Below are positions 18,664-21,600 of a stretch of 64,000 bases of DNA, one piece after another. This DNA is from Oscillospiraceae bacterium (GTDB lineage: Bacteria; Bacillota; Clostridia; Oscillospirales; CAG-272). Under the pieces are notes generated by a model, which saw nothing but the letters and a program-made list of their open reading frames with translations, made no database searches and was not told where the DNA came from. Each line of letters starts with the position of its first letter. Within the stretch, counting starts at the first letter, position 1. Where the stretch lies: positions 58,343 to 122,342 of the forward strand of contig SVTY01000004.1 of assembly GCA_015063535.1 (NCBI GenBank), given 5' to 3'. Made by a program: the position numbers and the translations under genes.

Positions 18664-21600
18664 ATGGCATATAAAACACGGCAACAGATCTATCAAGAAA
18701 ATCTGGCAAGGAGAGCCGGATATCTGAAATCTCCCGCGCAGCGCAGAGCCGAAGCGCAGGAGCGTCTCAGAGCGGCGCAAGCCGCCAAGCAGGCACAGGC
18801 GCAGGAGGTGGAGACAAAGATCAAGGCGGCATCTGAAAATGTCAATCCGATCTGGCGAACCTTATCAACGGTAAATCGTGTTCATGGCAAGGTCGCCACG
18901 GGTGCGTTGGGGGCGATCGAGGGCTTGGTCGATACGGTGATCGGCATCGGCGGAGCGATCGGCGGTGTCTTTGACGACGACATTCAAGAGGGGGCGCAGA
19001 AGATCATCGCCTACAACGCCACCGAGGAATGGGTGGGCAAGCACATCGACGAGCTGACCAAATATTCCTATACCGAAGGAAACAAGGTCGGCGAGATCAT
19101 CGAGGGCGTGGCATCGGGCGTGGGTCAGATGCTTCCCACTGTGGCGGCGGCAGCCATTACGGGCGGCGGCTCGTTGGCAACCACAGCGGCAACCAAAGCC
19201 GTCAGCCTTGGCGTCACGGCAACCAGTGCCGCAGGCAATGCCATGCAGGATGCCTACAACGAAGGCGCCGACTACTATCAGGGTCTTGCCTACGGCGCCA
19301 CCAGCGGTGCTTTGGAGGCGGTCACCGAAAAGCTCTCGGGCGGAACCATCGGAAGGATCACAGGCGTGGGCAAGGGCTTTGCCGATGATGCACTGAAGAA
19401 CGTGGGCAAAACGGGCATTGCCCGCATTGCCAAGGAAGCCGTCGGCGAGGGCGTGGAGGAAATGATCACCGAAGCGGCAAGCCCTGCCCTGAAGAGCATT
19501 TACAAGGGAAGAGAGGGGCTTCGGGAATACGGCACGCTCGAATTTTACGGACAGGTGGGAGAAGCGGGCCTTGTGGGTGCTCTGACCTCCGTGGCATTCG
19601 GACAGACGGTCGGCAGAGCCACTCTGCGGGGCGGCAATGCGGACATCAACGAAGCATTGGAATCCATCCGAGAGATCGACCAAAAGACCGACAAGCGGAT
19701 CATCACCTCCGATCTGACCGAGCGGGATATGGAAAGCATATCCCGGGCAAAGGGAGAAAACTATCGGAATATCGAGCAGGTGCTGAAGAAGATGGACGGC
19801 GAAAAGCGGGCGAAGATGATGACCCGCTACGGCTTTGACGGTATGTTCGATTCCGATGGCACGCTGAGAGCTGATTTTGCCGCCTCCAACGGCTTTTCGG
19901 TATCGGATGGGAAAGTGGTCGCCAACACGCAGAACCGTGTCACAGAGGCAAATTTACGCTATGTGGCACCGTCTCTGCGGAACAACCGCACCCGCATTGC
20001 CGAGGACTTGGCGGCGATCAATGAACGCCGCAGCGAGGGAAGCGCTCCTGTTGCGGTGTTCGGCGGTACGCTGTCCGCCGAGGGCGAGCAGGCATACAGC
20101 CGCTTGAAGGCGGCTGTGGCGAAGCTGAACCGCAAGGCGAACAGCCGTATCAATGTCACCGTCGTTACCGCCAACCCCGATTTCCAAGGCGTCTCCGTGC
20201 AAAAAAATAACATCTACATTGCTGCAGATGTGTTGGAAAACACCGCCCTTGCTGAACAGCTTGCCAAGCAAGTCGAGCAGACGGAGCAAACCGAGCAAGA
20301 CACAGCTCTTGACAATTTCGCCGAGGTGAGGTATAATAGAAAAAGCGATACCGAAGATTTATATACCGCTACGGATGCTTTTGTAAAAGAGGTTCACTAT
20401 GTGGACAGGCATTCCTTCGCACGAAGTCTTGCCAATAAAACCTCCGATATCCAAGAGGGCGAAACCAAGAATTTACATATTTATTGTGCTAAGAATATTT
20501 ATGTATTTGAAGCAGTCGGATACATGCAGGGTACGATGATTTTTTCGGTAAGTACGGATGCAAAAAAACAAAAAGAAAAAGAGAGAGGGAGATTTTATTA
20601 TGGCACTGACCGAAACCGAAAAGAAACTGATTTTGGAGCTGGCAGAAACCGTATTGAGCGAGGACGATCAAATCACTACACTGACAGTTTTGCAAACAGA
20701 GGAACAGAGAAAGCAAATGATTCGCTTCTTGCAGGAGAATCCCAACGCAACAGAGCAGGAGATTTTGAAAGAAGAAGTGAGGCTAATCAAGATACACGGG
20801 AAGAAGTAGATAGAATTGTTCATGAACTTCGGAAAAAATATGGAGAGGATTCAGCGCAAACAAATAAAATAAGAGATACCGCCGACCGAATTAACGGCCT
20901 TGAGCGCCCCAAACCAAACGAGGGTTACGCTCTAACAAACGGTATCTCTGATGATAGTATATCAGATTCTTCCGAAAAAGTCAATACCGATTCGAAAAAA
21001 ATTTCACATACCCCTATCAACACCGACCACGCCGTGAAAACGCTGATCCACGAAACGACCCACTTTGAAGAGGGAACGCCCGAATATTACGAGTTCATTC
21101 GTTTCCTTGCCGAGGATGAAAGTCTGATCGAGGAAACGATCCAAATGCTTACCGAAGAAAAGACAGGGTATGGCTTTACCAAGGAGCAGGCGAGTGTCGC
21201 CATGCAGAAGTTCGAAAACGGCGAGAAGCTCACCGAGGCGGAGCGGGAATTTATTTCCGAGCTAAACGCCCACGCCTCCGAGAAGCTGCTGGGCGGCAGT
21301 CAGGCGTTCATTGAAAAGTTAATACGGGGCGACAGCACACTGGCAGAGAGGGTGCTGGGCCGCATCACCGACGCTAAGGCGGCATTGGAGAGCCACCGTT
21401 CCCCCACCGCCCGAGGGCAGTATCTGCGCCTGAAGCGTGCGGAGCAACTCTATATGAAAGCCATTTCCGCCGCCGGTATGGGGTACTACAATGGTAAGAT
21501 TACGGTGAGGGAAGAAGAGGAGCAGAAACAGTACAATAGAAAAACTCAGATAGATGATCGGTTACAAATAGAAGTTTTGCGATCTATTGGCAGAAAGAGT

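Follow-up and report, generated by a model that had tools for sequence, protein, structure and literature searches.

The closest described counterparts of the element reported here are two antisense RNAs of temperate phages, lambda OOP and P22 sar. In both, a constitutive host-type promoter in or next to a phage gene directs a discrete, self-terminated RNA of ~70–80 nt that is fully complementary to a phage mRNA; OOP acts via RNase III cleavage. We analyzed a 64,000-nt stretch of an Oscillospiraceae genome (contig SVTY01000004.1, referred to as the window), in which the last gene of a prophage encodes a giant polyvalent protein. On the opposite strand of this gene, at 20857–20984, lies what is very probably a selected promoter–RNA–terminator gene, whose product we call RNA1. 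Type I toxin-antitoxin systems with 3'-overlapping antitoxin RNAs (txpA/RatA and bsrG/SR4 from Bacillus prophage regions, and pAD1 par) resemble this locus in their convergent promoters, in a small stable antisense RNA that opposes the 3' part of the transcript for a harmful product, and in their setting of a prophage locus in a Firmicute host. The LPD3 domain is a hallmark of polyvalent proteins of phages and conjugative elements. To our knowledge, descriptions of these proteins concern their domains only, and a full-text literature search, judged by titles and the openings of abstracts, yielded among the papers listed none describing RNA genes inside polyvalent-protein genes.

The giant gene and the parts of the RNA1 unit, which we refer to as a cassette, are the following. 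Coordinates are positions within the window on its forward strand, with the strand as marked. L-numbers label compared loci in other genomes (L023 is the host genome's own), and W denotes the window.

18664–26133, plus strand: giant gene for a phage polyvalent protein of 2489 aa (open reading frame (ORF) call; Pfam LPD3, phrog_22978)
20979–20984, minus strand: −35 hexamer TTGACT of the antisense promoter (sequence, promoter scan, conserved among copies)
20956–20964, minus strand: extended −10 element TGaTATACT, with TG at 20964–20963 and the hexamer TATACT at 20961–20956
20872–20949, minus strand: body of RNA1, 78 nt (fold, alignment, strand test, covariance model R1)
20857–20871, minus strand: U-rich tail TATTTTATTTGTTTG / UAUUUUAUUUGUUUG (11 of 15 nt are U), adjoining the closing stem

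The promoter of RNA1 (20984–20956) reads TTGACT-17-TATACT and scored 10/12 with the TG extension in the promoter scan. In the sense direction its extended −10 is AGT ATA TCA (Ser-Ile-Ser) in codon phase 0, and the sense-frame product of the cassette is the polar linker NKIRDTADRINGLERPKPNEGYALTNGISDDSISDSSEKVN. The −10 is separated from the stem by a gap of 6 nt (ATCATC). Transcription begins ~7 nt past a −10, so the expected start falls on the first stem base; we predict RNA1 to start at A20949, the 7th nucleotide after the −10. The 5' arm AGAGATACCG (20949–20940) is perfectly complementary to the 3' arm CGGTATCTCT (20881–20872). The closing stem P1 (20949–20938 with 20883–20872) comprises 12 pairs, 10 Watson-Crick and 2 G·U, and encloses the two hairpins H1 (20932–20902) and H2 (20899–20884). 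The minimum-free-energy fold is a three-way junction of −36.3 kcal/mol (z = −5.0), and none of 200 shuffled sequences folded as well. Directly behind P1 follows the U-tract UAUUUUAUU (7 U of 9). A stable stem followed by a U-tract is the arrangement of an intrinsic terminator and recurs in other cassettes; the tail at 20857–20871 is the presumed termination site. The original prediction for this locus, made from the letters alone, had listed the antisense promoter, a perfect 10-bp closure with U-tail and an ~80-nt RNA with a three-way junction, and all three are present as described.

Homologous copies of RNA1 were gathered via the RNA and not via the promoter. The promoter is nevertheless found at the same distance in 15 of the 17 copies, in the form TTGAyN, spacer, TAnnnT, with a spacer of 17 nt in 14 of them and of 16 nt in one. 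Pairwise identity among the 14 copies with a 17-nt spacer is 0.90 in the −35, 0.79 in the −10 and 0.39 in the spacer. Hexamers and spacing are kept while the spacer sequence is free, which is the pattern expected of a working promoter. Judged by sequence, near-consensus hexamers, a spacer of 17±1 nt and conservation among homologs, as expected of sigma-70/sigma-A promoters, are all found here. Of 36 cassettes compared, 27 have a gap of 5–7 nt between −10 and stem and 28 have a purine as the first base, in keeping with a start at the stem base.

A 23-nt core of RNA1 occurs exactly in 16 other species-level genome records (Acutalibacteraceae, Oscillospiraceae, Eubacteriales and Clostridia metagenome-assembled genomes), three of which duplicate loci already in the comparison set. 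Within the genus the core is present in 3 of 71 other genomes, and a family-wide search with the covariance model R1 detected RNA1 in one of 150 other genomes. A protein search showed the cassette-coded stretch to be 69–84% identical in related genomes, compared to 31–48% for the flanking domains. At the DNA level, the first 65 aligned bases, which cover most of RNA1, differ at two positions between species, whereas the flank on the promoter side diverges.

An alignment of the 17 copies gave 438 paired out of 442 pair cells (99.1%), with changes on both sides in 9 of 26 pairs. Sliding the 3' partners by 1–3 columns reduced the pairing to 37–49%, and the observed covariation was reached by none of 500 shuffles. 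All three helices are kept by compensatory change; distant copies found with the covariance model R1 compensate in H1, where GAGCG/CGCUC becomes GCGCG/CGCGC or UCGCG/CGCGA. Most homologous copies also have a U-rich tail. A stretch of 31 nt in H1 hardly varies across the 17 copies, in part an effect of ascertainment, as the copies were collected by an exact 23-mer, and the apex of H1 is replaced in two of the three divergent copies. This is the conserved structure that the original prediction expected in homologous modules.

The alignment also identifies the strand on which the structure is maintained. It contains 69 G·U cells, each of which turns into an A·C mismatch on the opposite strand, and pairing consequently drops from 99.1% on the minus strand to 83.7% on the plus strand. 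Because pairing is lost in these cells, the selected structure belongs to the minus-strand transcript and not to the giant mRNA. Variable columns are spread evenly over the sense codon positions (13, 10 and 13 for positions 1, 2 and 3), so change in this region is governed by the RNA structure rather than by the protein.

These results bear on the view that there is no RNA gene at all and that we are looking at a structure in the sense mRNA that paces translation after domains, at a by-product of a peptide motif (S-I-x-D-[FL]-x3-V-[NK]), or at chance. The plus strand does fold well (−27.9 kcal/mol, z = −5.8), the promoter always codes for Ser/Ile-Ile ... Val-Asn/Lys in a single phase, and a location 10–40 codons past a domain end would suit co-translational folding. 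A sense-strand function is at odds, however, with the lower pairing on that strand and with promoters and stems that persist where the opposite frame is closed. A peptide motif would not fix the codons of the hexamers, which are constant despite synonymous codons for Ser, Ile and Val, in copies that were found via the RNA. In addition, the combination of features is rare in the genome (see below), and we regard an explanation without an RNA gene as improbable in the extreme.

Inverted repeats of 10 nt are not rare by themselves: ten pairs within 150 nt of each other occur in 18000–27000. We therefore searched the 1.67-Mb genome on both strands for a composite pattern consisting of a promoter of at least 10/12, a stem of at least 8 bp starting 3–10 nt after the −10, and a U-tail. 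The whole genome contains 8 matches. The two strongest are RNA1 and a second cassette in the same giant gene, and they alone have stems of 11–12 bp without an obvious alternative reading. Five of the other six have 8-bp AT-rich stems, and one 10-bp match spans a ribosome-binding site and an ATG. The original prediction had considered chance less likely in view of two independent occurrences; the comparative data rule it out.

22104–22214, minus strand: second cassette (promoter scan, inverted repeat, fold)

The second cassette has the promoter TTGACA-17-TGcTATACT (22214–22186; 11/12 with TG). Its RNA, referred to as RNA2, comprises 68 nt (22181–22114) with arms at 22181–22172 and 22123–22114 and a U-tail at 22113–22104. 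It folds with −35.7 kcal/mol (z = −4.6) and has the layout of RNA1. The closing stem of one RNA2 homolog (in L028) carries a compensatory change. RNA1 had been suggested to share its design, with a different sequence, with an RNA at 22108–22181. The layout is indeed common to both and to dozens of further cassettes, but the three-way junction is not a shared trait, as 20 of 36 cassette RNAs are single hairpins. A cassette-like unit was also observed outside the prophage, in an intergenic region of the host genome (L023, contig C7, ~112300–112476). It combines the promoter TTGACT-16-TGaTATACT with a ~55-nt hairpin RNA and a run of U, and its promoter segment resembles that of RNA1.

Units of ~130 bp that are bounded by inverted repeats, lie in frame, code for polar surface or linker segments, fall into several families and, in the case of RNA1, occur beside different flanks could also be selfish palindromic repeats in tolerant linkers, similar to Rickettsia palindromic elements or miniature inverted-repeat transposable elements. 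The stem would then be a terminal inverted repeat and the promoter incidental. The dispersed, near-identical copies typical of such repeats are not found in the genome under study, which holds a single copy each of RNA1 and RNA2. Although the promoter is not part of the inverted repeat, 15 of 17 copies have retained it at a constant distance, despite divergence of the spacer. The G·U asymmetry indicates selection on one transcribed strand, and the distribution of cassettes is restricted to polyvalent genes and phage arrays. Selfish repeats are thus a very improbable explanation.

In order to see how widely cassettes occur, we sampled the order via the LPD3 family. Of 401 genomes, 37 contain it, which gave 29 other loci with a total of 90.9 kb. 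These loci contain 25 antisense and no sense cassettes, with at least one in 18 loci, where the scan of the genome under study predicts ~0.16 chance matches per strand. Fourteen of the 29 loci, representing nine GTDB families, have a cassette that begins 13–114 nt past the end of LPD3; in the window, the second cassette begins 19 nt past the domain end. The RNA sequences at this position are unrelated between loci and only the architecture is shared. Architecture and position are thus selected while the sequence is free, which fits an RNA that targets its own complement. Among 400 other genomes of the phylum we found only two further LPD3 loci, each with an antisense cassette just past the domain.

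The most extensive case is a gene of 4934 aa (LPD3, MuF_C, ART-PolyVal, PBECR3) with 16 cassettes, all antisense. It has 23 antisense promoters of at least 10/12, compared to 1.5 expected from shuffles. Twelve giant-ORF segments together contain 44 antisense and 11 sense promoters at this threshold, where shuffles lead one to expect 0.5–1.5 per gene and strand. In 38 of the 44 antisense promoters the −10 lies in codon phase 0, so that AGT ATA ... GTC AAx is read as Ser-Ile ... Val-Asn/Lys, and the same phase is found for all 25 ORF-embedded cassettes. Cassette RNAs are 57–84 nt long. In the minimum-free-energy fold the terminal stem closes in 33 of 36; the folds comprise 16 two-hairpin junctions and 20 single long hairpins. 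The encoded peptides are polar linkers, and in arrays the cassettes stand back to back. Ten of the 17 RNA1 copies are embedded, in antisense orientation, in open frames of 640 aa or more. All counts are lower bounds, as the detector is a simple pattern that misses weaker promoters and mismatched stems, and a few weak matches may be due to chance. On the sequence comparisons, RNA1 is a member of a large class of cassettes that lie antisense at domain boundaries in polyvalent genes of phages of Oscillospirales-type Clostridia. The class is maintained with covariation in no fewer than nine bacterial families. The best reading of these data is that the cassettes represent autonomous small-RNA genes overprinted on linker-coding DNA.

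Some loci of this class show further particularities. In L024, three near-identical cassettes (6270, 6597 and 6747, minus strand) are spaced by 150–330 nt, and part of the giant protein is built almost completely from cassette-coded repeats of ~50 aa (KTKMTEV..NSIPDFEENV[KN]). At a contig end in L028 (13749–13828, minus strand) two cassettes lie ~500 nt from the 3' end of a 23S rRNA gene, and in L039 (2544–2617, plus strand) a tRNA gene adjoins another cassette array. These rRNA and tRNA neighbors may mark integration sites or assembly joins.

RNA1 is read towards a promoter and a small ORF that are embedded in the giant gene in the sense direction.

20309–20337, plus strand: sense consensus promoter, 12/12 (promoter scan), converging on RNA1
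20558–20809, plus strand: alternative-frame small ORF of 83 aa (~69 aa from a likely internal Met start), between the sense promoter and RNA1

The product of the small ORF is charged and helical, not hydrophobic. The ORF ends 47 nt before the tail of RNA1, so there is no overlap, and the convergent geometry proposed in the original prediction is correct. Its further suggestion that RNA1 is a discrete structured RNA and not a blocker of a ribosome-binding site agrees with the comparative evidence from promoter, helices and strand. Weak alternative-frame homologs of the ORF were found in three other genomes of the genus (frames of 66–90 aa, E 3e-6 to 2e-4). They occupy four places, three of which (L079, L080 and L082) are inside open frames of at least 686 aa and one (L081) in a frame of 324 aa. 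All four are preceded by a sense promoter of 11–12/12 at a distance of ~230–310 nt, and in one case an antisense promoter follows immediately. The ORF probably represents a true gene, embedded in the larger one and served by a promoter of its own. Sense promoters of at least 10/12 were also enriched in the 29 LPD3 loci, with 27 in 90.9 kb compared to ~6 expected from the shuffle rate of the window gene. By eye, three of the sense promoters (W +20309, L004 +2390 and L005 +1844) code for [LV]-D ... Y-N. The presence of sense promoters in polyvalent genes hints at sub-genic expression of single domains.

RNA1 has its own promoter and terminator opposite a coding gene and is fully complementary to the mRNA of the giant gene, which is the geometry of a cis-antisense RNA. 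Antisense is the simplest action, since RNA1 is the exact complement of a linker segment of this mRNA. We therefore propose, as the likeliest of the modes of action considered but a tentative reading that we hold to be slightly short of probable, that RNA1 acts as a cis-encoded antisense lock on the giant gene. The host sigma-A RNA polymerase would start at about A20949, the first base of the closing stem, transcribe the 78-nt three-way-junction RNA and stop in the U-tract after the closing stem. The resulting RNA would be compact, with its 5' end held in a helix and a short oligo-U tail at its 3' end; in Firmicutes, RNAs are protected by stems at their 5' termini. RNA1 could pair with the giant-gene mRNA as well as with any transcript that starts at the promoter at 20309, since it is the full complement of both. 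Sense/antisense duplexes are substrates of RNase III. Cleavage of the duplex, together with head-on promoter interference, would lower the expression of the giant gene and of the 20309 transcript. The effect would be exerted while only the host polymerase is active, i.e. in the lysogen or in early infection, and a late gene laden with toxins would thereby stay locked.

Several observations weigh against this mechanism, some of them against its transcriptional basis and others against a purely cis-antisense role. The terminator is non-canonical: it is not called by the terminator scan, and instead of the 3–8 nt loop of a simple hairpin, 58 nt with two hairpins lie between the arms. Start, end and abundance of RNA1 are predictions from sequence. 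Conservation of the internal helices exceeds the requirements of pairing with a complement, and some 20 strong head-on promoters in a late-expressed gene would have to be overridden. The same cassette families also form dense arrays without a long opposite frame. In a phage-like contig with a family-A DNA polymerase (L029, 12674–13759, minus strand), seven cassettes including RNA1 stand back to back, and the frames opposite the five measured ones are open for just 35–126 codons. Array and genes of this contig are all on one strand, i.e. the cassettes are co-directional with the flanking phage genes. A dense array in L035 (3766–5410, plus strand) likewise has no long opposite frame; these dense arrays comprise five to seven cassettes. 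Apart from L029, there is a locus in which six cassettes follow the stop codon of the giant ORF. Moreover, two RNA1 copies (L031, 2873–2968, plus strand; L036, 7768–7863, minus strand) have neither promoter, U-tail nor long frame, and still their closing stem is fully compensated (ACAATACCG/CGGTATTGT in L031). The arrays without an opposite gene and the promoter-less copies with a compensated stem show that the RNA units are kept in their own right. Since the relatives are without exception metagenome-assembled genomes, closed frames in the arrays could partly be assembly errors; several stops per array argue against this. A search of the genome that carries the stand-alone array returned no further complete copy of the array's cassettes.

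The stand-alone arrays and the promoter-less copies that retain the fold are what one would expect of structured RNAs acting in trans, with targets elsewhere, such as a bound or decoyed host or phage protein or other mRNAs, and with the linkers serving as tolerant space in a size-limited phage genome. Covariation of H1 and H2 and the almost invariant stretch of H1 also point in this direction. The exclusively antisense orientation does not discriminate, as a terminator in the sense direction would truncate the giant mRNA. On the other hand, the RNA bodies at the position past LPD3 are unrelated across families and only their architecture is kept, fold types are mixed, and the invariance of H1 is weakened by the ascertainment and apex replacements described above. 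A short-word BLAST search of the host genome showed no complementary site for RNA1 or RNA2 beyond chance (best match a 16-mer, E = 0.026), and no Rfam family matches. The conservation of position and architecture in the face of unconstrained sequence favors a complement-directed or transcription-level role over a specific partner in trans, and we regard action in trans as rather unlikely.

A role at the level of transcription would make the cassette a strong head-on promoter with immediate termination, which acts by collision with or occlusion of sense transcription by the host polymerase or by insulation against antisense read-through and releases the RNA as a by-product, its inner hairpins serving only the formation of the closing stem. 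Promoter strength, spacing and the start-at-stem geometry are indeed the most conserved features, the RNA sequences are free to diverge, and cassettes stand back to back in arrays. For this purpose, however, a canonical terminator of 25 nt would suffice, yet the RNAs measure 57–84 nt. The promoter-less copies of RNA1 keep their structure, and stand-alone arrays that are co-directional with the flanking genes face no head-on target. This makes a purely transcriptional device distinctly improbable.

The antisense lock can be extended to the whole class. The linkers would then form a dual-coding rack with one convergent antisense lock per effector or toxin domain, comparable to a series of type I toxin-antitoxin systems, and free arrays would silence the polyvalent genes of rival phages, a form of RNA-based interference among phages. 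We consider this extension doubtful.

Further candidates were discarded. A tRNA-like decoy lacks an anticodon arm and an ARAGORN call, a ribozyme lacks an Rfam match, and a retron RNA would need a reverse transcriptase, which is absent. The single-strand DNA promoters of conjugative leading regions have the promoter inside the hairpin, which is not the case here, and a transcription-driven DNA-entry ratchet is contradicted by a terminator after ~80 nt. For a type I toxin-antitoxin pair proper there is no overlapped small hydrophobic toxin ORF; the only convergent ORF (20558–20809) is charged and does not overlap.

Database searches placed the cassettes in no known family. Rfam 15 gave no match at the gathering score in the window and a single chance-level match (E = 2) in 20700–22400 at E up to 5. 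For six cassette-rich loci Rfam matched only the tRNA and the rRNA end, both outside the cassettes. ARAGORN called no tRNA or tmRNA genes. IMG/VR contained no exact match for the core of RNA1 or of a second cassette family and no relative of the C-terminal part of the giant protein. INPHARED contained no DNA match; at the protein level it gave two weak matches without annotation and, for the LPD3 part, one that was weak and unrelated. PLSDB gave no match.

The giant protein carries the Pfam LPD3 domain at aa 1036–1144, by which it is a member of the polyvalent proteins (Pfam LPD, MuF_C, ART-PolyVal, PBECR), and phrog_22978 at aa 1659–2231. A P22-like portal gene is located upstream (5805–7811), and a host P-type ATPase gene downstream (26985) follows the prophage. 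The intergenic region 3' of the giant gene (26133–26985) contains two near-perfect promoters, +26241 (12/12, TG) and −26571 (11/12, TG), as well as several terminator-like hairpins. These may represent further small transcription units at the end of the prophage.

If the RNAs do lock or partition expression, they would explain how toxin-laden polyproteins stay silent. Gene callers and Rfam miss these RNAs in prophages of gut and rumen Clostridia. The dual coding is both extreme and regular, with linker, promoter, structured RNA and terminator in the same ~130 bp. The conserved cassettes may in addition serve as joints for domain shuffling, and they could be of practical use, since promoter, stable RNA and terminator are combined in a small natural unit whose 5' end is defined (as predicted).

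Compared to the known systems, the cassettes differ from each in several respects. OOP and sar are single genes at regulatory nodes (cII, ant) and overlap a gene end or a ribosome-binding site. Cassettes, in contrast, occur in numbers of up to 16, belong to many sequence families and lie in frame in one giant ORF at domain boundaries; their terminal stem encloses the whole RNA and doubles as the terminator. With respect to type I toxin-antitoxin systems, the small hydrophobic toxin ORF is missing, and the role of the "toxins" would fall to polyprotein domains. Rickettsia palindromic elements are similar in being hairpin units of ~100–150 bp that lie in frame and are tolerated as polar peptide segments, whereas cassettes have an external promoter, a U-tail and strand-specific G·U pairs, occur once per genome and family, and are found in one class of genes. 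The early antisense transcription across late or structural genes of lytic phages such as T4 and Pseudomonas phage PAK_P3 is alike in that transcripts made by the host polymerase oppose late genes, presumably preventing premature expression. Those transcripts are long or heterogeneous, however, and do not form arrays of discrete, terminator-closed and covarying small RNAs. The known cis-antisense RNAs of phages are solitary regulators; in the present case an entire class of giant phage genes appears to carry RNA genes on the opposite strand, in frame within its linkers.

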